A DNA stretch of 22,456 bases from an uncultured bacterium (GTDB lineage Bacteria; Hydrothermota; UBA3073; NMUJ01), in contig CBFDTI010000014.1 of assembly GCA_965612795.1 (NCBI GenBank), positions 1-22,456 on the forward strand, written 5' to 3'. The notes beneath the pieces were generated by a model. It was given only the letters and a program-made list of their open reading frames with translations. It did no database searches and was not told the DNA's origin. The translations under genes were made by a program, and so were the position numbers. Position 1 is the stretch's first letter; each line of letters begins with the position of its first letter. Positions 8,142-22,456 of this stretch are shown piece by piece.

Positions 8142-8264
8142 CTATAACCATAGTTTTGGTTTATCCGCACTCTGCAATGTAATATCAAGCTATGTGAAAC
8201 TTGATTTTTTACCTGTTGGTTGCATACTATTAGGATGCTTTCAACCGAGCCAACAGGAGGTACC

Positions 8265-9854
8265 ATGCGTTACTTACTATTATCAATGTTTCTTGTTGCA
8301 ACCACCATCGTGGCGGTACCAGGTGATGTAGAATATAAGTTACCAACACCGGGGCCATGTCCTACGGGGTTGGCGTTTGATGGCAAATATCTATGGGTGG
8401 CGGATCGCAAAACTGACACCCTGTACGCTATAGACCCCGTAACTGGTGAGATAAATAAGGTGATACCATCGCCGGGCTATTGGCCGATGGGGTTAGCATT
8501 TGATGGCAAATACTTATGGAATGTGGATCTTGACAATAGGCTGATTTATAAGATTGAGCCCAACTCAGGCACTATAGAGGATATTATCTACTGTCCATGC
8601 GTATATCCACAAGGGCTTACATACGATGGTACCTATCTATGGGTGAGCGATAGCAAAACGGATATGATCTATAAGCTTGACACCAAGGATGGTACTGTGT
8701 TGACATCATTTGTAGCGCCAGCGTCGGCATCTACGGGGTTGGCGTTTGATGGCAAATATCTATGGGTAAGCGATCATGGTAAGGACGAGATCTATATGGT
8801 TACGAAGGATGGTGAAGTATTGCTTATCATTGCATCGCCATTCCATTACCCCTATGGGATGGCGTTTGATGGTAAGTACATATGGAGTGTTGATTACGCA
8901 GCTGATACCATCTACAGGATGCGTATCGCAGACGATGAATATTATTCCGTAAGTGATGTAAAATATGCAACTGTCGAATATACGCAGGAATTGAGGAATT
9001 ATGGGCCTGATATGGTCATGCAGCTGGATTTCTACCTCGCTATACCAGAAAATAGAATGAATCAGAAGCTGCTTGGTGAGCTGGAATTCAACCCCTATCC
9101 CACAGATTTCGTAACCGACAAGTGGGGGCAGCGGTTCGCTCATTACAGGTTTACAAACGTTAAAGTAGCGCATTCCATAAAGGTGAGCATGAAAGTGAGA
9201 GTCAAAACCTGTGACGTACGATACTATATATTACCGGATAGGGTTGGTAGCTTAAGAGATATTCCTCGTGAAATAAAAAGGAAGTGGTTGGTTGATGGGT
9301 CAAAATATCAGATACACAATCCTATCATACAAAAAGCGGTAAAAGAAGCGGTGGGTGACGAACGTAATCCGTATTGGATGATGCGTAAAATATTCAAATA
9401 TGTGGTCGACCATGTAGATTATGAGCTTGCAGGTGGTTGGGAACCTGCCCCTGTTGTGTTGCAACGTGGTAAAGGGTCGTGTTCCGAATATTCGTTCGTA
9501 TTTATCGCACTCTGTAGGGCAGCAGGCTTACCGGCAAGGTATGTGGGTGCAGTAACACGAAGGGAAGAGGATAGTTCATGGGATAGGGTGTTTCATCGGT
9601 GGACAGAGGTGTACATACCACCTTATGGCTGGATACCGGTTGATCCATCAGGTGGTGATACTCCATCACCAAGGGGGCAAGCTAACGCTATTGGGCACAT
9701 ACGTAATTGCTATCTTATAACCACAGTAGGTGGCGGTGATTCAGAATATCTGGGGTGGTCGTACAACTCAACCGCTAAACTGAAGTCGTACGGTAAGTGT
9801 GAGGTGGAGCTTGAAAAGGTTGCTGAGTGGGAGCTGTTAAAACTACAGCCTTAG
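8265..9854 (+). CDS. Secreted protein with an N-terminal beta-propeller (GLAFDGKYLWV repeats) and a C-terminal transglutaminase-like domain
   Basis: AGGAGG RBS before ATG 8265 and signal peptide MRYLLLSMFLVATTIVA. Five G[LM][AT][FY]DGxY[LI]W repeats. GSCSEYS...ALCRAAGLPARYV...HRWTEVY..PYGWIPVDP triad. Confidence 0.85.
   Translation: MRYLLLSMFLVATTIVAVPGDVEYKLPTPGPCPTGLAFDGKYLWVADRKTDTLYAIDPVTGEINKVIPSPGYWPMGLAFDGKYLWNVDLDNRLIYKIEPNSGTIEDIIYCPCVYPQGLTYDGTYLWVSDSKTDMIYKLDTKDGTVLTSFVAPASASTGLAFDGKYLWVSDHGKDEIYMVTKDGEVLLIIASPFHYPYGMAFDGKYIWSVDYAADTIYRMRIADDEYYSVSDVKYATVEYTQELRNYGPDMVMQLDFYLAIPENRMNQKLLGELEFNPYPTDFVTDKWGQRFAHYRFTNVKVAHSIKVSMKVRVKTCDVRYYILPDRVGSLRDIPREIKRKWLVDGSKYQIHNPIIQKAVKEAVGDERNPYWMMRKIFKYVVDHVDYELAGGWEPAPVVLQRGKGSCSEYSFVFIALCRAAGLPARYVGAVTRREEDSSWDRVFHRWTEVYIPPYGWIPVDPSGGDTPSPRGQANAIGHIRNCYLITTVGGGDSEYLGWSYNSTAKLKSYGKCEVELEKVAEWELLKLQP
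8362..8767 (+). repeat. 37-bp exact intragenic direct repeat (8362-8398 and 8731-8767)
   Basis: CTACGGGGTTGGCGTTTGATGGCAAATATCTATGGGT occurs twice, in propeller blades 1 and 4. Confidence 0.9.
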
Positions 9855-10649: not shown

Positions 10650-13445
10650 CTATCTTTTAATGGTTACAGGTTGTGGGCGCCTTGCTTCTGTACCCAGTAT
10701 CCTACGTAGTACTGCAGCTGTATGTGAAGTGGGGTGTTTGGCTACCTCCTCGGGTGGGCCAGCAACTACAACTTCACCACCTTCGTCACCACCTTCGGGA
10801 CCGAGATCTATTATCCAATCCGCGTATTTTACAACCTCGGGGTTGTGTTCGATCACCACCACTGTGTTACCTCTATTCACTAATCTATCGAGTACCTTAA
10901 GCAACAGCAACACATCTTCAAAATGCAAGCCGGTCGTCGGTTCATCCAATAGATACAGCGTGTTACCCGTACCTATTTTCGATAGCTCACGTGCGAGCTT
11001 GACACGCTGTGCTTCACCACCTGATAACGTAGTGGCAGGTTGACCCAACTTTATGTAGCCTAACCCCACATCTTTAAGTAACTGTAGCTTACGTTTGATC
11101 GCAGGTATATCCTTGAAGAATTCATACGCCTCGTCTACGCTCATGTTGAGTACATCGGCGATATTTTTACCTTTGTATTTAACTTCGAGTGTCTCACGGT
11201 TGTAACGTGTACCTTTGCATACCTCACACGGTATGAATATATCAGGTAGGAAGTGCATCTCCACCCGTATAAGGCCTTCACCGCGACAGGCTTCACATCT
11301 ACCACCGGGTAGGTTGAAGCTGAACCTCGACTGCGTGTATCCGCGTTTGCGGGATTCTTTGAGCTCGGCAAAAAACTGTCGTATTGGGGTGAATGCTGAC
11401 GTGTAGGTGGCTGGGTTAGAGCGTGGTGTACGTCCGATTGGTGATTGGTCGATGTTTATCACCTTATCGATCTTATCTAAGCCGATGATCTCGTCGTATT
11501 CACCGGGTACATCACGTGAGTTATAGAAGTGACGTGCTAACGCCTTATAGAGTGTATCGTTGATAAGGCTCGACTTGCCGGATCCTGACACACCGGTGAT
11601 CACTGTGAACAAGCCCAGCGGTATCTTCACGGTGATGTTTTTCAAATTATTGTGACGTGCACCCTTTATGATAAGCCATCCCTTGTATGGGCGACGACGT
11701 TTGGTGGGTATCGGTATCTCTTTTATGCCTGCAAGGTACTGACCGGTGAGCGATTCTTTGCATTTCATTATATCGGTGGGTGTACCAGTAACTACGACGT
11801 GACCGCCTTGCTCACCGGCACCGGGGCCGAGATCTATGACCCAATCTGCTGACATTATCGTGTCACGATCGTGTTCAACAACGACTACTGTATTACCCAT
11901 ATCACGTAGGTTCTTGAGTGCATCCAACAACCTATGGTTATCACGTGGATGTAACCCAATACTGGGTTCGTCTAAGACATAGAGTACACCGACGAGGCCT
12001 GACCCTATCTGGGTGGCCAACCGTACACGTTCCTCTTCACCACCCGACAATGTATCGATACGCCTTGATAGTGTCAGGTAGCTCAACCCCACATCTATGA
12101 GGAATTTAAGCCTACGTTTGATCTCCTTGATTAGCCCCTGGGCGATTTTTGCTTTGACACCTTCGAGTTTTAACGTGTCAAAGAATTCGTACGCTTTGTC
12201 GAGCGACATGTCGGTGATTTCGGCAATATTTTTGCCTGCAATCTTTATGGATAACGCTTCGGGTCGTAATCGTGTACCGTTACATGCGGGGCATGGCTTA
12301 AACACCATGTAGCGTTCGATCTCCTCACGTATCCAGTTAGATTCAGTCTCATGGTATCGACGTAGTAGGTTACCGCGTACACCTTCGAAGAACTCATCCC
12401 CATAGAGGATGACCTTCTGTATCTTTTCGGGTAGCTTACCAAACGGCTTATGTAGGTCAACCCTATAGCGTTGACTTAAACTGTGTAGGTGCCAACGTAA
12501 CCACTTGCCGGGTGGTCCCCATGGTCTTATGGCACCCTCGTATATGTTGAGGTCGGGATTAACAACAAGCTCGGGGTCGATATCCAACGTTGTGCCCAAC
12601 CCCTTACATACCTGACATGCACCAAACGGTGAGTTGAACGAAAACAGACGTGGCTCTATCTCGCCATAGGTTACCCCACAATAGGGGCAGGAAAATTTTG
12701 TACCAAACAACAGGTCACGCTTCTGATCGACAAGATGTATGATTACCAAGCCGTTGCTTTCGTTAACTGCTATCTCGATGGAATCTGCCAACCTCGACCT
12801 TATGTCGGGTTTGATGATTAGGCGGTCGACCACTATTTCGATGTTATGTTTCTTGTTTTTATCAAGTGTTGGCACCATATCCAGCTCGTAGATGGTGCCG
12901 TCCACACGTACGCGGATGAACCCCTTACGTGCTATCTTATCGAATAGGTCACGATATTCGCCTTTCTTGCCACGGACGAGTGGCGATAGTATCATAAACT
13001 TTGTACCCATAGGAAGGTTGAGCAATTTATCCACAATCTGGTCTATGGTTTGTGAGGATATCTCCCTACCACATTTGTAGCAATAGGGTGTACCCACACG
13101 TGCAAACAACACACGCATATAGTCGTAGATTTCGGTCACCGTACCGACGATAGAACGTGGGTTCTTGGCGATCGTACGTGGCTGTATGGCGATGGCGGGA
13201 GTTAACCCCTCTATGGCATCGACATCGGGTTTTTGCATGACACCCAGGAAATGGCGTGCATAGGAGGAGAGTGACTCCACGTAGCGACGTTGTGCCTCCG
13301 CATAGAGGGTATCGAAGGCGAGTGAGGATTTACCCGAACCTGATAACCCGGTTATCACGATGAACTTGTTTTTGGGTACCTCAACCGTTATGTTCTTTAG
13401 GTTATGTACACGTGCACCTCGAATTATGATTTTGTCGCTAACCAT
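10650..13445 (-). CDS. uvrA: Excinuclease ABC subunit A
   Basis: GARVHNLKN, two Walker A motifs ([18 protein letters not shown]), CxxC zinc fingers, LSGGE signatures, LDEP Walker B motifs; 931 aa. Confidence 0.98.
13211..13322 (-). repeat. Direct repeat, copy 1 (inside uvrA); partner at 21071-21182
   Basis: 112 bp, 106/112 identical to 21071-21182, offset 7860. Confidence 0.95.
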
Positions 13446-13537
13446 AATTTTATAAAGGTAGCTGAGATTTTCATCGAATCAATACCCTGGTTATTGTTCA
13501 TCTAAATGCACTCCCTTAGGCAACACTAAGAAATGCG

Positions 13538-13565
13538 TTGACTGCTTACCTTAATTCGCTATTAT
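13538..13565 (+). promoter_or_regulatory. Candidate cassette-array promoter (Pc-like)
   Basis: TTGACT-N16-TATTAT, pointing into the + strand gene array and divergent from uvrA. Confidence 0.5.
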
Positions 13566-13608
13566 TTATGGGATGGGAAACTATAGCATAAGTAAAAGAA
13601 TTAAAAGG

Positions 13609-13635
13609 AACGGTTCGTATATGAACGAGTTATAT
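13609..13635 (+). other. Candidate attI-like recombination site (array entry point)
   Basis: AACGGTTCGTATATGAACGA-G|TTATAT. GTTATATGAAATGC (13629-13642) is the 13/14 reverse complement of the left end of the next attC (GCACTTCATATAAC, 14190-14203). No full attC stem lies upstream. Confidence 0.5.
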
Positions 13636-13667
13636 GAAATGCTCGCGAAAATCAGGGAGGTAACAAA

Positions 13668-14159
13668 ATGGTGAACGTTATTGAACCGAAGAAGTACGTT
13701 GGTTATTGTGGCGTATACTGCAGAGGATGTGGTATGCTTAGGGGAAGGACGATAGCCAGAGTTGCTGAGTCGCTTAGGGAATTAATAGAGGTTTACAAAT
13801 TTGTGCATTGGGTACCTGAGCATGAACCAATAGATTTTAACTTCAAGGATTTCAAAGCAGGCATAGACTATTTTTCCGATAGCGCCAAAGGTCCCTATTG
13901 CCAAGTTCCGTGCAAGGAAGGAGGAGGAAATCCATTTTGTGAAGTACGTAAATGCGCGGAGAATAGAGGAATCGAATTTTGTTTTCAATGCACTGAGTTC
14001 CCATGCGATAAACTTTCACTTATCTTAAAAGAACACCCAGATTTGGTAAAAATCAAAGAAATTGGCATAGAAAAATGGGTGGAAGAAGAAGAAAAAAAAG
14101 CTCAAATAGGGTACGACTGCCATACAAGAAAGTACTATACAGAAGCGAAGATGAAATGA
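13668..14159 (+). CDS. DUF3795 family Cys-rich protein (cassette 1)
   Basis: YCGVYCRGC...CQVPC...CEVRKC...FCFQCTEFPC pattern; GGGAGGT RBS. Confidence 0.85.
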   Translation: MVNVIEPKKYVGYCGVYCRGCGMLRGRTIARVAESLRELIEVYKFVHWVPEHEPIDFNFKDFKAGIDYFSDSAKGPYCQVPCKEGGGNPFCEVRKCAENRGIEFCFQCTEFPCDKLSLILKEHPDLVKIKEIGIEKWVEEEEKKAQIGYDCHTRKYYTEAKMK

Positions 14160-14196
14160 AGTATCCTCATATGGTAATAGAATTTGCTCGCACTTC

Positions 14197-14284
14197 ATAT
14201 AACAGACGCATATCTGGCTACGGGCTGTCGCCCTCCGCCCAAATTCCCCTTCGGGGAACTTCAGATACGCTCAAAACGTTAGCT
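14197..14284 (+). other. attC site 1
   Basis: ATATAAC...GTTAGCT ends. Inner inverted arms GCATATCTG (14208-14216) and CAGATACGC (14262-14270). Central hairpins GGGC-tgtc-GCCC and TTCCCC-ttc-GGGGAA. 88 bp. Confidence 0.8.
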
Positions 14285-14307
14285 GACATGCCAATAAGAG
14301 GTAAAAA

Positions 14308-14336
14308 TGGACTCTTTAACTACGATAATTTAAAAT
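14308..14336 (+). promoter_or_regulatory. Cassette-internal promoter of the toxin-antitoxin pair
   Basis: TGGACT-N17-TAAAAT upstream of the MNT gene. Confidence 0.45.
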
Positions 14337-14359
14337 CGAGGATGAAATAAGATAAATAG

Positions 14360-14671
14360 GTGGCAAAAATGAAAAAAACGCTTGATAGAATAAAGGAAAT
14401 TCTTAAAAAGCACGAAAGAGAGCTGAAAGAAAAATATGGAATTAAAGAGATCGGTATTTTTGGTTCTTACTTAAGAGAAGAGGCTAAAGAAGAAAGTGAT
14501 CTCGATATTTTAGTGGAATTTAAGCATGATGCGAAGATTAGTCTTTTAGAATTTGTTGAATTGGAAAATTATCTCAGCGATTTGCTTGGGGTAAAGGTTG
14601 ATTTGGTTGAAAAATCCGCATTAAAACCAAGGATTGGCAAACGTATCTTAAGTGAGGTTGTATACGTATGA
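14360..14671 (+). CDS. Minimal nucleotidyltransferase antitoxin (MntA-like)
   Basis: IGIFGSYLR....ESDLDILVEF (GS-x10-DxD) and KVDLV motifs; ATGA overlap with the HEPN gene. Confidence 0.9.
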   Translation: MAKMKKTLDRIKEILKKHERELKEKYGIKEIGIFGSYLREEAKEESDLDILVEFKHDAKISLLEFVELENYLSDLLGVKVDLVEKSALKPRIGKRILSEVVYV

Positions 14672-14910
14672 AAAGAGAAATCGGCGACTATGTAGAGGAC
14701 ATTCTGGAGGCTATGACTAACGCTATGGAATTTACAAAAGATATGTCATACGACGAGTTCGTTAAAGACACTAAAACCGTATATGCGGTTATCAGAGCCA
14801 CAGAGATTATTGGAGAGGCGGTCAAAAATATACCGGAAGACATAAAAAAGAAGTAACCTGACATTTCTTGGAGAAGTATGGCTGGAATGAGAGATAAGGT
14901 TATACATGCC
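14668..14910 (+). pseudogene. HEPN (DUF86/HepT-like) RNase toxin, inactivated
   Basis: YAVIRATEIIGEAVKNIP, then in-frame TAA at 14854-14856 where Tyr is expected. The frame continues PDISWRSMAGMRDKVIHA (Rx4H motif), then similarity ends. Confidence 0.85.
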
Positions 14911-14938
14911 ATGCTGATGCGGGATTGGCCTTCGGGTC

Positions 14939-15020
14939 ACTTAACACGAGGGTATGTGGCTTCGCCTTCGGCTACGCCCAAACCCCGCCAAGGGGGCTTC
15001 ACATATCCCAGAGGTTGTGC
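14939..15020 (+). other. attC site 2
   Basis: ACTTAAC (RYYYAAC)...GTTGTGC ends. Inner arms GGGTATGTG (14950-14958) and CACATATCC (15000-15008). Shares the GGCTWCG...CGCCCAAA...CTTCA scaffold with attC1. 82 bp. Confidence 0.8.
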
Positions 15021-15057
15021 GAAATTGCATTAAAAAGTTACATTGGAGGTAAAAAGG

Positions 15058-15630
15058 ATGAGGAATCTTAAGGCAAAAATGTTCAACAAAAAGGCATCCG
15101 ACCCGCGAAATAAACCCCATCAGATTATTGAAACTATGGGATTGAAATCCGGTCAGATTGTCGCTGATATAGGAGCAGGTGGCGGTTATTTTACATTGAG
15201 GTTTGCTGAAATAGTGGGTGAAGATGGAAAAGTTTACGCTGTAGATACAGATGAAAAGCTTTTAGAATTCGTGAATAGTAACGCTAAACAGAAAGGATTG
15301 AATAATGTAGTTACGGTATTGGTCAAAGATAAATTGGAACTACCAAAAGAAAGTTTGGACCTTGTGTTTATGCGCAATGTGACACATCATATATCAAACC
15401 GTGTTAGTTACTTTAAGGAGCTGAAGAAATTTCTAAAGCCTTATGGCAAAGTGGTCATAATAGAATATAAGAAAGGCAAACCGTTTACATTCCGTGGAAT
15501 GTTTGGACATTATGTAACCAAGAAAGCTATTATTCGAGAAATGGAAGAAGCAGGGTATGTTTTGGAAAAAGAATTTGATTTTCTACCAGAACAACATTTT
15601 ACAATTTATTTAAATAAACAAAAGTTCTAA
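15058..15630 (+). CDS. Class I SAM-dependent methyltransferase (cassette 3)
   Basis: VADIGAGGGYFT, VYAVD, LDLVF and LKPYG motifs; GGAGGT RBS before ATG 15058. Confidence 0.9.
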   Translation: MRNLKAKMFNKKASDPRNKPHQIIETMGLKSGQIVADIGAGGGYFTLRFAEIVGEDGKVYAVDTDEKLLEFVNSNAKQKGLNNVVTVLVKDKLELPKESLDLVFMRNVTHHISNRVSYFKELKKFLKPYGKVVIIEYKKGKPFTFRGMFGHYVTKKAIIREMEEAGYVLEKEFDFLPEQHFTIYLNKQKF

Positions 15631-15670
15631 CACTTTGTAGGTGGACAACTTGAGGGTTCACATCTGAACC

Positions 15671-15752
15671 ACTCAACAGATGGTCATGTAGCTCGCTTAT
15701 GTTAATCAAAATTTGTTTGACAAGCAACTTTTACATATCCAGAACATTGATA
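15671..15752 (+). other. Degenerate attC site 3
   Basis: ACTCAAC left end, arms GGTCATGTA and TACATATCC, CAAAATT-hairpin-ACTT scaffold. The terminal GTT reads ATT (15746). Confidence 0.5.
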
Positions 15753-15770
15753 AGCTTACAGAAACGTAAC

Positions 15771-15798
15771 TTGACATGATTTGCGTTATGATTACAAT
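15771..15798 (+). promoter_or_regulatory. Sigma70-like promoter upstream of tsaA/trmO
   Basis: TTGACA-N16-TACAAT. Confidence 0.55.
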
Positions 15799-15827
15799 CC
15801 AGTGAAGAGAAACCAAATAGTAACGTC

Positions 15828-16313
15828 ATGGACGTGATAAAGTACAAGCCGATTGGGATTATTCATTCTCCATTTAAAGAACCCAAGGGGACACCCATAC
15901 AACCTACAGGTGCCAAGAATATTGATGCAACGGTTGAACTATTTCCCAAATATGTCGAGGGGTTGAAGGATCTGGAAGGCTTTTCTCACATCATTTTGAT
16001 ATATCACTTCCATTTATCCAAGCATACATCTTTAAGGGTGAAACCATATATGGATGATGAGGTACGTGGGGTGTTTGCAACACGAGCTCCAAGTAGACCA
16101 AATCCTATCGGCATATCGGTGGTGCGTCTTGTTAAGGTGGAAGGCAACATATTGCATATCCAAGATGTAGATGCCGTGGATGGAACCCCACTCTTGGACA
16201 TAAAACCCTATGTACCGGAATTCGACACAAGAGAAGTAGAGAAAATAGGATGGCTCGAGAAGAGGGTGCATAGACTTCGAGAGACAAAAGATGATGGAAG
16301 ATTCACAAAATGA
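15828..16313 (+). CDS. tsaA: tRNA (t6A37)-N6 methyltransferase TrmO/YaeB family
   Basis: KPIGIIHSPF, GLKDLEGFSHI, GVFATRAPSRPNPIG, DAVDGTPLLDIKPY. Confidence 0.93.
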   Translation: MDVIKYKPIGIIHSPFKEPKGTPIQPTGAKNIDATVELFPKYVEGLKDLEGFSHIILIYHFHLSKHTSLRVKPYMDDEVRGVFATRAPSRPNPIGISVVRLVKVEGNILHIQDVDAVDGTPLLDIKPYVPEFDTREVEKIGWLEKRVHRLRETKDDGRFTK

Positions 16314-16383
16314 TCCGGTACATTAAATGGAAGGGAGAATAGGGAATTTACAGATTTTTCGAAAAGGTTAAAGACCATGGTTA

Positions 16384-16397
16384 ACTTCATACGACAG
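16384..16397 (+). other. Possible attC left-end remnant
   Basis: ACTTCATACGACAG is 12/14 identical to the attC1 left end ACTTCATATAACAG. No right arm seen. Confidence 0.3.
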
Positions 16398-16583
16398 CGA
16401 AGATTTAGAAATTGAAATTCCGGATCAGGTAGATGATAGATGGATAGGCTTACCTATAGAAATACGGTGCCTATAATATAGTCGGGCTTGAGTATTTCTG
16501 CTGGAACTCTTTCGAACAACCATGCATTTTCCATGGCAACTTATTTTATTGACAAACTAATATTATCAGCGAAATTAACAAGG

Positions 16584-17840
16584 ATGGAAAGGAATACGGC
16601 AAAAATATCTCCTACCGAGATGGTAAAAAAGCAATTAGAAAAGGCAGCAAAGATTATGAAACTTGATCCAAATTTGCTGGAAATATTAAAGCATCCCAAG
16701 CGAGTGGTTGAAGTGTCGATCCCTGTAAAAATGGATGATGGCTCAATAAAAGTATTCACAGGATACAGATGCCAGTATAATGATTTCAGGGGACCATTTA
16801 AAGGGGGTATACGATTTCATCCTGATGTAACAAAGGAGGAAGTTATAGCACTCGCTGCTTGGATGACTTGGAAATGTGCAGTAATAGATATTCCTTTTGG
16901 TGGAGGCAAAGGAGGGGTAAAATGTGACCCCACTAAGCTCTCTATAAGGGAATTGGAAAGATTAACAAGACGTTTCACATATGCTCTCATGCCGTTACTG
17001 GGGCCATCTATTGATATCCCTGCTCCTGATGTATTTACAGGTGAAAAAACCATGGCTTGGATTATGGACACTTTTAGCGTATTCCAGGGTCAAACAGAAC
17101 CTGGTGTTGTAACAGGCAAATCACGCACTATAGGGGGATCAGCAGGAAGGAGAGAAGCTACTGGCAGGGGAGTAGCCATCTGCACAAGGGAGATGATGAA
17201 ATTATACGGAGACGATATAGAAGGGAAAACTGTGGCAGTTCAGGGATTTGGTAATGTTGGTTCTTATGCCTCAAAATATTTAACTGAAATGGGTGCAAAA
17301 ATAATAGCTGTAACAGATATCACAGGTGGGGTATTTGATGAAAATGGGTTAGATATTGATGGTTTAATGGAATATGTGAAAGAAAAGAAAAGAGTAAAAG
17401 GATTCACAAAGAAATCGATAACAAATGAAGAATTATTCAAACTGGATGTCGATATAATAGTTCCTGCTGCCCTCGAATGCGTTATAACAGAAGAAAATAT
17501 GAAAGATATAAAAGCAAAATATATCTCCGAAGGTGCAAATGGTCCAACAACACCAGAGGCAGATGAATATCTTTACAATAATGGCAAAATAGTAATTCCT
17601 GATATTCTGGCAAATTCTGGGGGTGTGCTCGTAAGTTATTTCGAATGGGTGCAGGATAGAATGAGCTACTACTGGACTGAAGAAGAAGTTTTCACAAAGA
17701 TGGAAGAAAAATTGAAAAAAGCAGTAAAGGAAGTTTATGAAACAGCAAAGAAATACAACATAGATCTAAGGACAGGTGCATATATACTTGCAATAAAAAG
17801 GGTGGCAGATGCATATTATGAAAGAGGTCTATTTCCATAA
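16584..17840 (+). CDS. gdhA: Glu/Leu/Phe/Val dehydrogenase, probably glutamate dehydrogenase
   Basis: GPFKGGIRFHP, MTWK, GGGKGG, DIPAPD, ATGRG, VQGFGNVG, EGANGPTT, PDILANSGGV motifs. ATG 16584 is preferred as start. Confidence 0.9.
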   Translation: MERNTAKISPTEMVKKQLEKAAKIMKLDPNLLEILKHPKRVVEVSIPVKMDDGSIKVFTGYRCQYNDFRGPFKGGIRFHPDVTKEEVIALAAWMTWKCAVIDIPFGGGKGGVKCDPTKLSIRELERLTRRFTYALMPLLGPSIDIPAPDVFTGEKTMAWIMDTFSVFQGQTEPGVVTGKSRTIGGSAGRREATGRGVAICTREMMKLYGDDIEGKTVAVQGFGNVGSYASKYLTEMGAKIIAVTDITGGVFDENGLDIDGLMEYVKEKKRVKGFTKKSITNEELFKLDVDIIVPAALECVITEENMKDIKAKYISEGANGPTTPEADEYLYNNGKIVIPDILANSGGVLVSYFEWVQDRMSYYWTEEEVFTKMEEKLKKAVKEVYETAKKYNIDLRTGAYILAIKRVADAYYERGLFP

Positions 17841-17935
17841 ACTTTCTTCGTTTGATTCACCTGAAAAAATTGCACAGGCGATAAATAGAAAAATAACACC
17901 TATTAAAAAATTCGAAGTAGAATTCTATTATCCAG

Positions 17936-18348
17936 TTGAAAAAATCCAGCAGAAGTAACTTAGTCAAAATATATATTAGTCTCATTATAGCCCTCGCTAT
18001 CTTAGCAGCGATTAATGTTTTCTTACCCCAAGGTTCTTTCCTACTAATTTTGCCAGCAAAAGAACTTCCAGCTTCCAAACCAGTACTTGCCTTTGTGAGT
18101 GCAGTCATTATGCTCATCCTTTATGGTGGCTTAGGCTTTATTGGATTAAAGCTTTCACAAAAACTCGGCTTTGCCGATATCTGGGATTCAAGAGTTACGA
18201 ATAAACAGAGGTTTTTGATTCCCGCACCTGTTGGGATAGCTATTGTGTTTTTCATCTTCGTTACTTCAGGAAGTTTGGATTTCTTGCTGCAGTTAGCATA
18301 CACTTCTGGACAGATGTTATATGGCATGTCATCTGGAGGATGATTTAG
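17936..18348 (+). pseudogene. CPBP (CAAX protease/Abi) family intramembrane metalloprotease, internally deleted
   Basis: N-terminal transmembrane region in one frame. From 18262 a second frame reads YFRKFGFLAAVSIHFWTDVIWHVIWRMI* (CPBP terminal HxxxD motif). The central EExxxR and FxxxH motifs are missing. Confidence 0.7.
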
Positions 18349-18350
18349 TT

Positions 18351-18803
18351 ATGCCACTTCATATAACACAGTATAAAAGGTTTGCTTTTACGCCGGGAAT
18401 CGCTTTGATTTTGTTGCTAATTGTACTATTTCTCGTAGCTGGATGCTTTCATAAAACCGATCAATGTGTAAATTGGGAGAATGGATTCGAAGATGTGGAA
18501 AATTTTAGGAAAGCGACACCCGAAGGGCTGAGGGAGGCTGTTGAGGATTGCATTCTACACGGAGATTGTTGGATCGAGGAGGAAAACTGGTTGGAGGTGG
18601 GACCCACAGATACGGCACGAAATTACGAACTCGCCCCAGATATGGCGGATGCAAGTGTAACCCCTGAGATAGCTCATATTACAATCCCGCCTATAAAGGA
18701 TATAGAGCCTTTAATTTCTATGCTGGGTTGGTTAGCTTCAATGATAGAAGAGGTCAAGAAGTATATCTTGACAATTTCTATGCAAGGGAAATTGAATAAA
18801 TGA
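18351..18803 (+). CDS. Hypothetical lipoprotein-like protein, true start uncertain
   Basis: Hydrophobic stretch ending in lipobox-like LVAGC. No recognised domain. Confidence 0.45.
   Translation: MPLHITQYKRFAFTPGIALILLLIVLFLVAGCFHKTDQCVNWENGFEDVENFRKATPEGLREAVEDCILHGDCWIEEENWLEVGPTDTARNYELAPDMADASVTPEIAHITIPPIKDIEPLISMLGWLASMIEEVKKYILTISMQGKLNK
18355..18367 (+). other. attC left-end remnant
   Basis: CACTTCATATAAC is identical to 14191-14203 and lies 6 nt after the CPBP stop. The rest of the site is absent. Confidence 0.6.
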
Positions 18804-18804
18804 G

Positions 18805-19346
18805 ATGAAAAGCAGCATTACCTCTTCAGTTATGTTGCTGGTGTTTTTCATATTCGAAGGCTGCTTATACTTTAATGAAAGTAACCAGAGCATAGACTGG
18901 AATCTGTTAAAAGAAGATGGATTTGAATATGAGAAAGTATTCGATTTTCCAGAAAATTGGCAAGACCAAACTGCACACCCTAAGTAGTAGCTCCAGATTT
19001 TACCCATTAGTATATTGCCATAGTGGGTTTCAACCGTAAAGGGCTTATCAAGTATGGAACAAGTTACGGGGTAACCGGAGGTAAATAAACTATGAATCTT
19101 TAGATGGCGGATTCGTTATCGATTGCAACAAATGGTATAAAGCAGGGCTATCCGCAGATTTCAGCAAATTCGGGGTATGGTGGGATGGAAATTCCCGCTT
19201 ACAGTTTGGACTGATTATATGGTATATGCTTCTCGTTTGGAGCTTGCTATTTTGGTATCTCAAATTATTTAAATTACGAAGCAGCAGCTTATTTCGATGA
19301 AGCAAAAATCTACGTGGGGAAAAGAAATGATCCGCATTTCACCTAA
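18805..19346 (+). pseudogene. Fragmented exported/lipoprotein-like gene
   Basis: Signal-like MKSSITSSVMLLVFFIFEGC, stop at 18987. Protein-like pieces continue in other frames and end AAAYFDEAKIYVGKRNDPHFT*, where the stop overlaps an attC-like ACCTAAC (19341-19347). Confidence 0.4.
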
Positions 19347-19370
19347 CGAGGACGTACTGCGAGGAATAGA

Positions 19371-20114
19371 ATGGAGCCAATAACACAAATGTTGATATAT
19401 CTCTTCATAGGTCTTTTTGCCGGATTTATGAGTGGTATGTTTGGAATAGGAGGAGGATCTGTAAGGACGCCGCTCCTTTACGTGGCCGGGTTGCCTTTAC
19501 TAAGTGCTTTTGGAATAAATCTAGTGGTTATACCTTTCTCCTCGCTTATTGGCGCTATAAGTCACAGAAAGAATATAGACTGGAAAATTGCCCGATATGT
19601 AATAATTGGCGGGATAATGGGTACTTTGGCAGGTGCATTTTTAACAGGAATTATGCCAACTTTAACTTTAGCGATTATCTTTGTTATTGTTTCCATAGTA
19701 ACAGTATTTGGGATTTATTTCGATAAGATTTTCCCGGAAATTGCTCAAAAAATTAATCCAAATGCAAAGATTGTCATTTTAGGGACATTCTTTCTCAACT
19801 TCCTAACAATTCTACGTGGAGGTAGTGGTGGCAGTTTATTTCCCCCTTTCCTAAAAATGATAGGCCTTAATATTCGAAAAGCAATAGCCACATCACTGTT
19901 TGCGACCATCTTCACAGCAACTGCAGGAGCGATTGTGTTTTGGTCTCGTGGCAATGTACCATTTCTCCCCGCTGTAATGGTAGTTGCAGGTTCAATAATC
20001 GGAGCCCGAATAGGTAGTTTAACGTCTTTGAAGACAAAGCCAATGTGGTTAGAAATTGGACTTTCATTATTCATTGTGATTCTTGCTATAATTGTGCTGG
20101 TTAAAGCAATATAA
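19371..20114 (+). CDS. Sulfite exporter TauE/SafE family membrane protein
   Basis: GLFAGFMSGMFGIGGG..P, second repeat GGSGGSLFPP..AIATSL, multiple transmembrane helices. Confidence 0.9.
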   Translation: MEPITQMLIYLFIGLFAGFMSGMFGIGGGSVRTPLLYVAGLPLLSAFGINLVVIPFSSLIGAISHRKNIDWKIARYVIIGGIMGTLAGAFLTGIMPTLTLAIIFVIVSIVTVFGIYFDKIFPEIAQKINPNAKIVILGTFFLNFLTILRGGSGGSLFPPFLKMIGLNIRKAIATSLFATIFTATAGAIVFWSRGNVPFLPAVMVVAGSIIGARIGSLTSLKTKPMWLEIGLSLFIVILAIIVLVKAI

Positions 20115-20156
20115 TAACTGAATATTTTTGCTCACAAACTCTGCAACAACTTCATT

Positions 20157-20211
20157 GCTTCACCTAAATTACCTTTGGTATCTCCTTTTATCACAAAAGT
20201 TGTACGATATT
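20157..20211 (+). other. Degenerate attC right half
   Basis: GCTTCACCTAAATT-ACCtttGGT...CAAAAGTTGTACGATATT mirrors the attC1 scaffold. GTTGTACGATATT is 11/13 identical to GTTGTGCGAAATT (15014-15026). Confidence 0.5.
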
Positions 20212-20260
20212 CCGACTTCGTTGCTGGGAAAGGAGCTAAGAAAAAGTCAATAGTGTTAAG

Positions 20261-20863
20261 ATGAAAAACAAAAAGGAAATAGCAAAATCGATCTATGATG
20301 GATTGAGAAAAGGAGATATTGAATCAACCCTATCTTTAATCTCAGAGGAACTTAAAGAGGAGAAAACCGGTAAGCTTAAAATTACCAAAACCCCCTTACT
20401 TAACTCAATAGGGCAAGAATTGGGCAAATTACTGATTGAGGAGAGCTGGAAATTTGAAAGATTATTGGAATTATGGGAAAGAGGTAAAAGAGACGAAAGA
20501 TTAATTGTAATAAGTGCCTTAGAGAAGGTAAGCAAGAAGGATTATGAGAACTCAAAACAATTTGTTTTTGAGATCCTCGACGATATCGCGGATTGGGAAA
20601 TTTGCGACCAATTAGCTTTAAGGGTGATTGTAAATTTAGCAGTCCAGAATCAAAAAGAGACATTTTCTTTGATGGAACGATGGATAAACTCCGAGAATAA
20701 ATGGTCGAGAAGATTGGCAGTAGCAACAAATCCCACCTTACATAAGGGCGAGAGAAACAGAATCAAAAGTTTGCCTCCAGTTTTTAGATAAGACGATGCG
20801 CGAGAAGGATGGAGATGTCAAAAAGCAATCAGCTGGGCTTTAAGAGAGGTTACGAGGAAAGAT
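20261..20863 (+). pseudogene. DNA alkylation repair protein (AlkD-like HEAT repeat), frameshifted and truncated
   Basis: IADWEICDQLA and W..SENKWSRRLAV motifs. An extra A at 20728-20730 hides IPPYIRARETESKVCLQFLDKTMREKDGDV, and a missing A at 20820-20824 hides KKAISWALREVTRKD. Confidence 0.8.
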
Positions 20864-21070
20864 ATGGAATTAAAAATAGGATTATCTAATGGTGACCTCG
20901 GAGGAAACGCTTCGTCGCTTCACTCCTCGTACTCACCTCGTTTATGTATGTTAACAGCGGTATGCAGGTCGCTTCAAACAAAATAAAAGGAGAAAAAAAC
21001 TATTGCCACGGTGATAAATTAAACGAAGCGATTCCGTAGAGAATTCCACTTCGTAGGTGGATAGTGACAG

Positions 21071-21182
21071 CTATAGCATCAACATCGGGGTTTTGCATAA
21101 CACCCAAGAAATGGCGTGCATAGGAGGAGAGTGACTCCACGTAGCGACGTTGTGCCTCAGCATAGAGGGTATCGAAGGCGAG
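21071..21182 (-). pseudogene. uvrA: uvrA fragment (direct repeat copy 2)
   Basis: Encodes [37 protein letters not shown]; 106/112 identical to 13211-13322. Confidence 0.9.
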
Positions 21183-21208
21183 CTCCTTAAGCATTAAATT
21201 GAGGAGCT
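21181..21208 (-). terminator. Hairpin downstream of mscS, possible terminator
   Basis: AGCTCCTTAA-gcattaaa-TTGAGGAGCT (9/10 stem), abutting the uvrA fragment. Confidence 0.4.
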
Positions 21209-21230
21209 AACCCGAAGTTAGGTCATATGA

Positions 21231-22262
21231 TCATGAACCTGGCTGTGCTTTATCCTTTGGAGTACATTCCAGATACACCGTAGTAATAGGAAACGGTATT
21301 GTGATACCAGCTTCACGGAATTTAGTGTCGATAAGCGAGTTGATCTCATCCACAACATCCCATTGGTAACGGGGTTCTTTCACCCATACTATTAACCTGA
21401 AGTTGAGCGCAAAGTCTGCAAACTTCATAAAGTACACTTGTGGAGAGGGTTCATCTAAGACATACTGGGCGTCACGTGCACATTCAAGCAGAACTTGTTT
21501 GACTTTGACTATATCGCTACCATATGCGACACCTATATCTATGAATACCTTCATCGGTGGCATAGGTAATGTGAAGTTAATTAACTCCGAAGATGCTATT
21601 TTGGAATTCGGTATCACCACAATCCGTTCTTCGAGTGTTTTTATCTTTGTAGTCCTTAACCCAATATCTATCACATCACCTAAAAAGTCACCTACTTGTA
21701 TTCTATCGCCGATAATAAATGGCCTATCTGCAAGTATGAAGAAGCCCGCAATTATATTAGCGAGTACATCTCTTGCTGCAAATGCAAACGCTAACCCGGT
21801 GATACCCACCCCAGCAACCAACCCTTTGATATCATAGCCTGCCACCCTCACGATACCAGCCATACCAGCGATCACGACAATGAATTTGGTAATACGGCCA
21901 CTGAACGTCACCACTGCTTCATAGAGGCGCGATTCTACACGTCCTACTAACCTACTGCGTAGGATTGAGAAGATCACATCTACAATCTGATACATAAGGT
22001 AAGTGCCGACAATCACGAAGGCTATCTTAAACCCTTTATCGATTGTTTGCATAAACGGTAGCTTGAAATACAACACTATGATATAAAGTGTAACCAAAAA
22101 CAGTAGCAGGAGTAACGGTTTTTCTATCTTCAGGATAGCACGGACAACTTTTGCACCTCTGGTGAAGCCTTTTACATACATACGTATGAGCAAACTCAGT
22201 ATTATACCTAATACAATAGTAGAGCTACAGATAATAATTAACCGCATATCAATTAATTTCAT
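21231..22262 (-). CDS. mscS: Small-conductance mechanosensitive channel (MscS family)
   Basis: GLAFAFAARDVLANIIAG, DRPFIIGDRI, GDVIDIGLRTTKI, IPNS, IGVAYGSD, GITIPFP motifs. Confidence 0.93.
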   Translation of the reverse strand: MKLIDMRLIIICSSTIVLGIILSLLIRMYVKGFTRGAKVVRAILKIEKPLLLLLFLVTLYIIVLYFKLPFMQTIDKGFKIAFVIVGTYLMYQIVDVIFSILRSRLVGRVESRLYEAVVTFSGRITKFIVVIAGMAGIVRVAGYDIKGLVAGVGITGLAFAFAARDVLANIIAGFFILADRPFIIGDRIQVGDFLGDVIDIGLRTTKIKTLEERIVVIPNSKIASSELINFTLPMPPMKVFIDIGVAYGSDIVKVKQVLLECARDAQYVLDEPSPQVYFMKFADFALNFRLIVWVKEPRYQWDVVDEINSLIDTKFREAGITIPFPITTVYLECTPKDKAQPGS

Positions 22263-22339
22263 CACACTTTAATACTACTACTTAACCCCTAACGTCAACT
22301 TAAATGTTGACTTTTATGTAAATTTCGTATTTTACCCAT

Positions 22340-22456
22340 ATGGTTATTGTGAGCGCATGTTTGGTAGGCTTAAATACAAGGTATGATGGTACCAACGCAT
22401 CACGTGACACCATAGTGGCAATGTTACGCAATGGTGAAGCCATCCCCCTATGTCCA
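22340..22456 (+). CDS. DUF523/YbbK (TudS, thiouracil desulfidase-like) family protein, 5' part only
   Basis: Not in the ORF track. MVIVSACLVGLNTRYDG...GEAIPLCP matches the DUF523 SACLxGxxxRYDG...PxCPE signature and runs off the window. Confidence 0.85.
   Translation, partial: MVIVSACLVGLNTRYDGTNASRDTIVAMLRNGEAIPLCP

Follow-up and report, generated by a model that had tools for sequence, protein, structure and literature searches.

How does an internal piece of a core DNA-repair gene come to stand by itself, almost 8 kb from the intact gene and beside a channel gene that the closest genomes lack? The question is raised by a locus in an uncultured marine bacterium with a small genome, whose assembly is a metagenome bin of 128 contigs. 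The window, that is, the whole stretch of DNA that was analysed, comprises 22,456 nucleotides. Its intact uvrA (10650..13445, minus strand) encodes 931 amino acids in an open frame, with two ABC ATPase halves (ABC_tran, PF00005), an interaction domain (UvrA_inter, PF17760) and a DNA-binding domain (UvrA_DNA-bind, PF17755), and is the sole full-length uvrA of the genome. Codons 1-41, including the Walker A motif GLSGSGKS, occupy 13323..13445 (minus strand) and are followed by a divergent intergenic region (13446..13667), whose promoter-like sites are at consensus level only, and then by the first gene of a low-GC block.

A repeat scan of the window yields one two-copy direct repeat of 112 nt with 95% identity and a spacing of 7860. 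By repeat scan and similarity search, copy L (13211..13322, minus strand) is codons 42-78 of uvrA, and copy R (21071..21182, minus strand) is a stranded version of the same codons. The copies agree at 106 of 112 bases, a match far above chance (E = 1.7e-45), and are the only two in the whole 1.42-Mb genome. Their similarity ends abruptly at both borders, and neither similarity search nor translation finds uvrA codons 1-41 or codon 79 onward beside R. The six mismatches (13215, 13221, 13230, 13239, 13247 and 13299 in L) correspond, in ascending codon order and given as L/R, to A49 GCG/GCT, L67 CTG/TTG, V69 GTC/GTT, K72N AAA/AAC, V75 GTC/GTT and A77 GCC/GCT, hence five synonymous changes and K72N as the sole non-silent one, with N in R. 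The repeat coordinates, the mismatch positions and the five-to-one count in a preliminary description of this DNA were all reproduced. Its identical core of 51 nt (13248-13298) also stands, whereas the one-sided clustering of the mismatches lacks significance, since placing six differences at random leaves an identical run of 51 nt in 12-16% of cases, and a crossover point or gene conversion cannot be read from it.

Is R a real part of the genome? With a bin of so many contigs and several strains per run, an assembler might have pasted R in from a strain variant of uvrA. We consider this very improbable. A 77-nt overlap of contig ends points to a graph k of 77, longer than the identical run, and with sequence other than uvrA on either side of R, the assembler would have had to make two chimeric joins within 112 nt. 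A 64-residue open reading frame that spans both borders of R (21000-21194) is on record, exactly, on two further contigs of up to 8883 nt (JGI/IMG, ENA), and the adjacent mscS is found on four. Logan contigs of runs X1 and X2, built with k=31 and thus unable to bridge the 51-nt core, cover 21129-22335 and beyond with 0 and 7 differences, respectively.

The neighbour of R is an mscS-family channel gene (21231..22265, minus strand), an open frame with the MS_channel domains PF21088, PF00924 and PF21082 at or above their cut-offs; 48 nt separate its stop from the start of R. A homologue occurs in none of the three closest genomes (G001-G003), the best identity within the phylum is 34-39% (272 genomes) and the best global match reaches 45%. 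The genes on the four mscS-bearing contigs, three of which measure 8883, 4729 and 1880 nt, are 99-100% identical. By these comparisons mscS is an orphan in the host lineage and would have been gained horizontally.

Population data from runs X1-X4 show that R and mscS travel together. They are contained in a strain-variable segment of 1.24 kb (21061..22305) made up of 8-10 nt, R, 48 nt, mscS and 40 nt, in place of which other strains have 5-7 nt. The corresponding joint, from 21060/21062 to 22306, is found in runs X2 (depth 21.8), X3 (302.6) and X4 (159.5) from three studies; its shorter side in X4 is just 23 nt, and for X2 and X3 it stands in the table of joints only. Over 21154-22140 the depth in X3 and X4 is near zero (0-7 vs about 75-300 on the flanks). 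Run X2 holds the mscS-bearing form too, 99.4% identical to the window, and strains with neither R nor mscS are 1-3% diverged from it. R and mscS are one physically tied, strain-specific segment. Because the strains that lack R keep the gene block between uvrA and R, this segment, not the 7.86-kb interval between the repeats, is the variable unit. Its polarity is a different matter: uvrA and mscS are both missing from the assemblies of G001 and G002, of the same genus, as is any DNA match to 21061-22456, and the valS contig of G001 stops short of the region upstream of DUF523. The indel is therefore unrooted, with deletion in other strains and gain here equally parsimonious.

Known vehicles do not account for the segment. 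Among nine inverted and seven direct short repeats there are no terminal inverted repeats and no target-site duplication at 21061/22305, and a transposon or MITE origin was rejected. A hairpin with 10-nt arms just downstream of mscS (21181..21208, minus strand) overlaps the border of R by 2 nt, and one of 6 bp across the right border of the segment (22294..22311, plus strand) may be due to chance. A plasmid or phage vector was likewise discarded: only the uvrA piece (query 13-123) finds matches, to uvrA genes at 74-84%, and mscS matches nothing. Nor does the strain joint restore a longer minus-strand gene, as translation of 20800-21058 meets a stop after only about 35 residues.

What, then, lies between the two repeat copies? 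The block (13668..20880, plus strand), delimited by Pfam annotation, GC content and population joints, has all its genes on one strand: DUF3795, MNT/HepT, a SAM methyltransferase, TrmO, glutamate dehydrogenase, two unknown ORFs, TauE and a DNA-alkylation-repair gene. HepT has a broken frame and the DNA-alkylation-repair gene carries two frameshifts. The GC content is 33-43% against 44.8% for the genome, and other runs show presence/absence joints of gene size within the block, stretches that lack contigs in single runs being left aside. The methyltransferase and TrmO are as diverged from the congener G001 as core genes are, and were therefore vertically inherited. An element at 14190-14300 has no second copy in the genome, and Rfam and tRNA scans of the window gave no match. 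An integron cassette array or CALIN was considered for the gene-by-gene variation and rejected. The attC-like motif is RYYYAAC ... GTTRRRY; its pattern matches the window five times, always inside coding regions and never at gene borders. To the right follows the start of a conserved DUF523-like gene (22340..22456, plus strand), which, across a 77-nt overlap between the end of this contig (C14) and the start of C105, runs on into the latter and is succeeded there by valS; a 51-residue minus-strand ORF at the window end is spurious. The block between uvrA and the DUF523-valS operon is thus hypervariable, low in GC and decaying, and R and mscS sit at its end away from uvrA. Flexible genomic islands are hypervariable regions of low GC whose place in the chromosome is fixed and whose content differs among co-occurring strains. 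The block resembles them in its fixed flanks (uvrA and DUF523-valS), a GC content 2-4 sd below the genome, gene-sized presence and absence among strains of the same samples, a toxin-antitoxin module and decaying genes. It differs in being small (about 7.5 kb) and in carrying R, a datable scar that records one exchange.

Direct repeats around a low-GC interval invite another reading, which the preliminary description adopted in outline: a 7.86-kb circle carrying a promoter and uvrA codons 1-78 entered uvrA by a single crossover of the Campbell type, either site-specific or homologous. For this to hold, the native 5' end must later have been deleted. Together with a precursor in which mscS was joined to a truncated uvrA, such a circle would lead to the same final map as the explanation we prefer, and the atypically low GC of the interval would agree with it. 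Several findings are against it. The contig has no integrase, transposase or other mobile gene (Pfam on 19 window ORFs, PHROGs on eight); the two matches of the genome to the tyrosine recombinase family PF00589 (Phage_integrase) are on other contigs, C15 and C28. The interval varies gene by gene, not as a single unit, and two of its genes, the methyltransferase and TrmO, match core genes in age when compared with G001. Strains lacking R (X2, X3, X4) retain the island, and their uvrA 5' end is unchanged. In X4, a run without R, one contig extends unbroken through L and that 5' end (12706-13532). Unitigs of X1, X2 and X3 break at 13298, which is what the presence of an R copy predicts. No joint that skips 7860 bases is among the 15 of 22 joints listed.

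The expected footprints in uvrA are missing as well. Native codons 1-41, which an incoming replacement 5' end should have displaced, are absent beside R, and the similarity ranking of the 5' end is not discordant with that of the remainder of the gene (Spearman 0.83 over 22 relatives). Nor is mscS a conserved chromosomal flank, uvrA and mscS being adjacent at none of 28 uvrA loci and none of 19 mscS loci of relatives. As far as the data reach, the two genes are never neighbours and the 5' end has no discordant history, the very combination that the description had named as speaking against its model. We regard the model as distinctly unlikely. Integrative elements that target 5' ends, such as SXT/R391 in prfC or those in dusA, resemble this locus: in both, direct repeats fall within the 5' region of a conserved gene, and the intact gene has its first codons between the repeats. 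Unlike them, the locus has no recombinase gene beside an att site and no displaced native 5' end or promoter at the distal junction; its interval is partly vertical and variable gene by gene, and strains without the far repeat still hold it. Given the recombination history that we infer, L and R do not represent attachment sites, and the interval contains nothing self-mobile.

If R did not arrive by integration, could it have arisen in place? A tandem duplication of the stretch between uvrA codon 78 and the island's end, most of whose second copy was then deleted, would leave R behind; R would have drifted while L changed at silent sites only, and strains without R and mscS would reflect a later deletion. 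This scenario requires no donor, and direct repeats in the same orientation are the expected leftover of a tandem duplication. K72 is invariant in 22 of 22 relatives, and the N of R at this position shows a copy that is now unconstrained. The silent changes speak less clearly than had been thought. With both copies drifting as the null, the synonymous excess is strong (P 0.004-0.010); with the fairer null, in which R drifts while purifying selection acts on L, it comes out as borderline (P 0.036-0.071), and not clearly against duplication. Set against the scenario is the expectation that drift over a dS of 0.22 would produce several non-silent changes, whereas one of six was observed. Also, with mscS 99-100% invariant, the X2 form 99.4% identical and the mscS-less strains 1-3% diverged, the near-invariance of mscS and of the X2 form makes the segment seem too young for a divergence of 5.4% in place. 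The orphan mscS, finally, would be left as a coincidence. We judge duplication in place to be rather unlikely.

A second allele fits the divergence better. R and L differ by a dS of 0.216 and a dN of 0.012, which falls within the range of G000-G001 orthologues, a comparison of congeners (dS 0.21-0.32, dN 0.010-0.042), and R is therefore read as the remnant of a congeneric allele. L and R also have A51 and H65 in common, where 21 of 22 relatives have G and Q. R thus appears to come from a second allele of uvrA that was once functional and belonged to the same genus-level lineage. Its divergence from L is that of congeners, and the G001 and G002 assemblies offer no uvrA for assigning the allele. 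The earlier proposal of two functional alleles holds in so far as the divergence and the shared A51 and H65 agree with it, less so in the synonymous excess on which it was built.

Might R do something today? Read-through of the plus strand could give an antisense RNA to the uvrA 5' region, with complementarity to the uvrA mRNA at 106 of 112 positions, or the ORF at 21000-21194, open for 64 residues, could encode a small protein. We find either role highly improbable: at R there is no promoter-like site or Rfam match, the ATG of the ORF has no preceding Shine-Dalgarno-like run, the dominant strains of three runs do without R, and K72N hits an invariant residue. That R is now non-functional is the best explanation of its sequence.

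Taken together, we give about an even chance to the following: a second, congeneric allele of uvrA left R behind as a stranded remnant, in connection with the gain of mscS and through recombination that was illegitimate or was homologous on one side only. The order and mechanism of the events would be as follows. In a related genome, foreign mscS DNA would have been joined to uvrA at codon 41/42 by illegitimate recombination, creating the right border of R. This mscS-uvrA genome and one that bore the island would later have exchanged DNA, with homologous recombination on one side and illegitimate recombination on the other. The exchange would have created the left border and stranded codons 42-78, by homology-facilitated illegitimate recombination (HFIR) or an equivalent. 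None of the genomes and contigs examined showed the intermediate that this predicts, in which mscS is joined to a truncated uvrA extending beyond codon 78. A degenerate pattern of the 51-nt core matches two metagenome contigs and seven genome contigs, none of the nine with the mscS of the window nearby. None was taken for a close relative: the former are distant by DNA (65-70% over short stretches), and the latter belong to other phyla (Moraniibacteriota, Bdellovibrionales, Patescibacteria), set apart by record titles only.

How well does the locus agree with HFIR? Illegitimate junctions typically show short microhomology of a few nt. Here it amounts to just 1-2 nt (1 nt shared at the left border, the 2-nt hairpin overlap at the right), with about 8 filler nt between the strain joint and R. 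This is less than typical for HFIR and counts against the preferred explanation. The inserted mscS, for its part, has the HFIR trait of lacking a homologue in the recipient lineage. ComEC and DprA homologues in the genome would be compatible with DNA uptake and are permissive only, being found in non-competent controls too. HFIR is documented in PMC5361080 and PMC3240628 and is proposed for displaced 3' ends of T6SS effector/immunity and Rhs genes, where orphan fragments are left, with reference to de Vries & Wackernagel 2002 and Prudhomme et al. 2002. As in the orphan fragments described there (PMC5361080), a piece of a conserved gene is stranded beside new DNA that has no homologue, with no recombinase and with a direct repeat of one intact and one orphan copy. 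Unlike those 3' ends, R is internal to its gene (codons 42-78) and 7.9 kb from the intact copy; the gene in question has a housekeeping role in repair, the junctions share no more than 1-2 nt of microhomology and the postulated intermediate was not found.

A more dramatic history is conceivable, though we think it rather unlikely. In a related strain, foreign mscS DNA could have replaced uvrA codons 1-41 and the neighbouring block, a knock-out that was later repaired: two crossovers, one of them homologous and the other illegitimate, would have brought in an intact 5' end with its block from a different strain. If this is true, R is the scar of a natural loss of an essential repair gene and its rescue by horizontal transfer. 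Homologous recombination across the 51-nt core would delete 7860 bp together with codons 1-41 and Walker A, a consequence of the geometry that was already pointed out in the preliminary description. As it would destroy uvrA, such a deletion should be selected against, and under knock-out and rescue R would now shield the 7.9-kb block. Otherwise R is an ordinary recombination scar.

What can be learned from so small a fragment? Direct repeats around a low-GC block are not sufficient to call an integrative element, and it was population contigs that shifted the variable unit from a 7.86-kb interval to a 1.24-kb segment. Should knock-out and rescue be shown, the locus would represent a natural case of recombinase-free gene capture beside, and repair of, a core DNA-repair gene. 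The locus also illustrates how a short fragment from the interior of a gene allows one exchange in a flexible region to be dated and oriented, here in an uncultured bacterium with a small genome.

The window spans the full length of contig C14 in a metagenome bin of 1,423,495 bases and 128 contigs (99.5% complete). Its sole long direct repeat consists of two 112-nt copies, L (13211–13322) and R (21071–21182), which lie 7860 nt apart and are identical at 106 positions. L is part of an intact uvrA gene (10650–13445, minus strand, 931 aa; assigned by ORF and Pfam), where it covers codons 42–78. Five of the six differences between the copies are silent (codons 49, 67, 69, 75 and 77) and the sixth is K72N; a recount returned the same mismatch coordinates as the preliminary description, and the repeat itself is real. 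The longest identical run is 51 nt, and the crowding of mismatches towards one side does not reach significance (P 0.12–0.16). Similarity stops sharply at either border: nothing resembling uvrA codons 1–41 or codon 79 onward was found beside R. A genome-wide search returned L and R as the only copies (E 1.2e-53 and 1.7e-45) and no second uvrA. Within uvrA two short direct repeats (11002–11100 and 12025–12123; 1023 nt apart, 77–80% identical) reflect the two homologous ABC halves of the protein.

The surroundings of the two copies differ. Pfam places a VTT-domain gene and ordinary genes to the left of uvrA. To the right of its start, on the plus strand, follows a block of DUF3795, an MNT/HepT pair, a SAM methyltransferase, TrmO, glutamate dehydrogenase, two unknown ORFs, TauE and a DNA-alkylation-repair gene. 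The block ends in about 280 nt of non-coding DNA, after which come R, a further 48 nt and an mscS-family gene (21231–22265). As the latter is on the minus strand, R sits directly downstream of mscS in the minus-strand sense. The window closes with 117 nt that hold the plus-strand start of a DUF523-like gene, which continues on contig C105 and is followed there by valS; the window is linked to this pair by an exact 77-nt overlap of contig ends (22380–22456 with C105 1–77), and contig C73 in turn ends in the sequence with which C14 begins. Elsewhere in the window, a 544-aa transglutaminase/beta-propeller-like ORF (8220–9854) contains five in-frame copies of a 60-nt unit (8367–8915; spaced 120–123 nt, 63–72% identical), probably blade repeats.

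Could R have been produced by the assembly? The contig overlap points to an assembly graph at k=77, and a repeat whose longest identical run is 51 nt would not collapse or be mis-joined at that length. Since both flanks of R are non-uvrA, a chimera would also require two joins within 112 nt, and the 64-aa ORF spanning both of its borders is recorded unchanged in JGI/IMG and ENA on two contigs of at most 8883 nt. The mscS gene itself is recorded on four contigs (8883, 22456, 4729 and 1880 nt). Assembled contigs from two other metagenome runs, X1 and X2 of the Logan collection, match the sequence from position 21129 on, differing at 0 and 7 sites; at k=31 they cannot span the 51-nt core, and none of the contigs listed covers 21061–21128, at the left junction of R. 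An assembly chimera is thus very improbable.

The genes of the block have a GC content of 33–43%, where the genome has 44.8% (sd 2.5 points, 835 long ORFs), uvrA 47.9% and mscS 41.2%. HepT (14668–15040) is interrupted by a stop 62 codons in, beyond which its frame is lost, and the DNA-alkylation-repair gene (20261–20880) carries two frameshifts; its frame is restored by deleting 1 nt near 20728 and inserting 1 nt near 20819. Strains in runs X2 and X3 carry exactly these two changes, so the gene is broken here and whole elsewhere. The methyltransferase and TrmO pieces differ from those of the same-genus genome G001 by dS of 0.255 and 0.214, similar to core genes (0.261 for a 951-codon surface protein, 0.324 for valS); this stretch of the block, if not more of it, is therefore older than the divergence of the two species. 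In G001 a 1728-aa ORF (contig C88, 292–5478) separates the methyltransferase and TrmO genes that are adjacent in the window, which is another large indel within the same block, and the nearest match there to the glutamate dehydrogenase has only 66% DNA identity.

Population data from four runs of four studies (X1–X4, contigs placed at at least 90% identity) show what varies between strains. A joint from 21060 to 22306 with seven other letters occurs in X2 (depth 21.8) and X3 (302.6), and one from 21062 to 22306 with five letters in X4 (159.5), the shorter side of the latter being only 23 nt. The X2 and X3 joints are documented in a single table (5c) of the contig comparison. Depth across 21154–22140 is 0 in X4 and 4.5–7 in X3, versus about 75–300 on either side; in X2 (8.1, 99.4% identical) and X3 the form with mscS occurs as well, at low depth. 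The segment whose presence varies at the right end is R plus mscS (21061–22305), not the 7860-bp interval. Further joints, among the 15 listed of 22, skip genes singly or in groups (13646–14184, 13635–15021, 14262–19361, 16315–19253, 18533–18969 and 18997–19236), so the interval varies gene by gene. That at 16316–19252, which omits glutamate dehydrogenase and the two unknown ORFs, has a depth of 150 in X4 and 6.3 in X1. The very high summed depth of the MNT gene region (3409 in X1) indicates that close relatives of the MNT/HepT module occur in many other contexts. At the left end, an X4 contig runs unbroken through L and the uvrA 5' end (12706–13532), and unitigs of X1, X2 and X3 end at 13298, the point where the L and R k-mers part. 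The loose X4 ends at 12706 and 21040 resemble sequencing-adapter sequence, so some X4 contig ends are probably library artefacts.

Where did R come from? Both copies encode A51 and H65, two positions at which 21 of 22 relatives carry G and Q, so the fragment derives from this lineage's own uvrA. The two residues fall in the conserved YAEGQRRY...YARQF stretch of UvrA and recur in a few distant lineages. K72 is kept in all 22 relatives, and its replacement by N in R reads, from the alignment, as a sign of lost constraint. R and L differ by a dS of 0.216 and a dN of 0.012, the same pattern as orthologues of this genome and G001 (dS 0.21–0.32, dN 0.010–0.042). Duplication in situ followed by decay of R would have to account for five silent changes in six, which are improbable if both copies drift (P 0.004–0.010) and only borderline if R drifts while L is constrained (P 0.036–0.071). 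The mscS gene is nearly invariant (99–100% identity across four records), and this together with the restriction of the R-plus-mscS form to near-identical sequences suggests a young segment. The import of an already diverged allele appears to fit such a segment better than 5% decay in place, and we regard duplication in situ as unlikely.

With mscS as the query, MscS-family matches (E≤1e-20) exist in 215 of the 272 genomes searched in the phylum, the best at 34–39% identity, with none in two same-genus genomes and one same-order genome (completeness 87%, 66% and 97%). The best non-self match among 5.8 billion proteins reaches 45%; the next named ones come from archaea (Altiarchaeia) or Geobacter-like bacteria (38–39%), and no plasmid or phage record matched the mscS part. 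Neither direct mscS–uvrA adjacency in relatives nor a separate history of the uvrA 5' end, the checks raised by the preliminary description, was borne out. None of 28 uvrA loci of relatives (26 with 1.5-kb flanks, two with up to 10 kb) has mscS or block genes, no uvrA lies within 1.5 kb of any of 19 mscS loci in the phylum, and this mscS is at none of nine further uvrA loci. The similarity ranking of UvrA residues 1–41 tracks that of residues 79–931 (Spearman 0.83, n=22), with no discordance visible at this resolution. In G001 uvrB is present and uvrA undetected, probably because it is unassembled.

These observations can be joined in one possible history. The right border of R, where uvrA codon 42 meets the 3' flank of a foreign gene, would be the trace of an illegitimate insertion of mscS DNA into the uvrA of some related genome. 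At the left border codon 78 meets the block end, about 8 nt from where other strains enter the DUF523 promoter. A single exchange between such an mscS/truncated-uvrA genome and a block-bearing one, homologous on one side (in uvrA or DUF523–valS) and illegitimate on the other, would produce precisely the present map and its 112-nt direct repeat. Homology-facilitated illegitimate recombination follows the same logic (PMC5361080; PMC3240628). ComEC and DprA homologues are present in the genome and are merely permissive. The mscS/truncated-uvrA intermediate is not seen and junction microhomology is minimal, so that we infer the order of events. To the overall reading, a scar of illegitimate or one-sided homologous exchange tied to mscS, we give about an even chance.

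The preliminary description had instead proposed Campbell-type integration of a 7.86-kb circle into uvrA. From a truncated-uvrA precursor such an event would end in the same map, but the native 5' end that it should have displaced is missing, and the age of the interval and its gene-by-gene variation speak against it. It also lacks a recombinase: neither Pfam (19 ORFs) nor PHROGs (8 ORFs) found one in the window, and a PF00589 search found only two tyrosine recombinases genome-wide, on contigs C15 and C28. Gene borders in the window bear no attC-like sites, and no terminal repeats enclose R plus mscS. We hold this integration to be distinctly improbable; its two alleles and stranded fragment beside mscS stand, while its mechanism is not supported and its unit gives way to a 1.24-kb segment of R and mscS. 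The map resembles that of dusA/prfC elements, which insert in the 5' end of a gene and supply a new start, but the flanking repeat is the one feature found here out of the four that define them. A closer mechanistic likeness is offered by orphan gene fragments from recombinase-free displacement at T6SS and Rhs loci (PMC5361080).

The window has no tRNA or Rfam match, and a role of R as functional RNA or peptide is hardly to be expected. The setting of the scar is a flexible genomic island. As the preliminary description foresaw, a crossover between L and R within the 51-nt core would remove uvrA codons 1–41, Walker A motif included, and the repeat thereby penalises loss of the block. On the reading favoured here, R is a further example of an already known type of scar.
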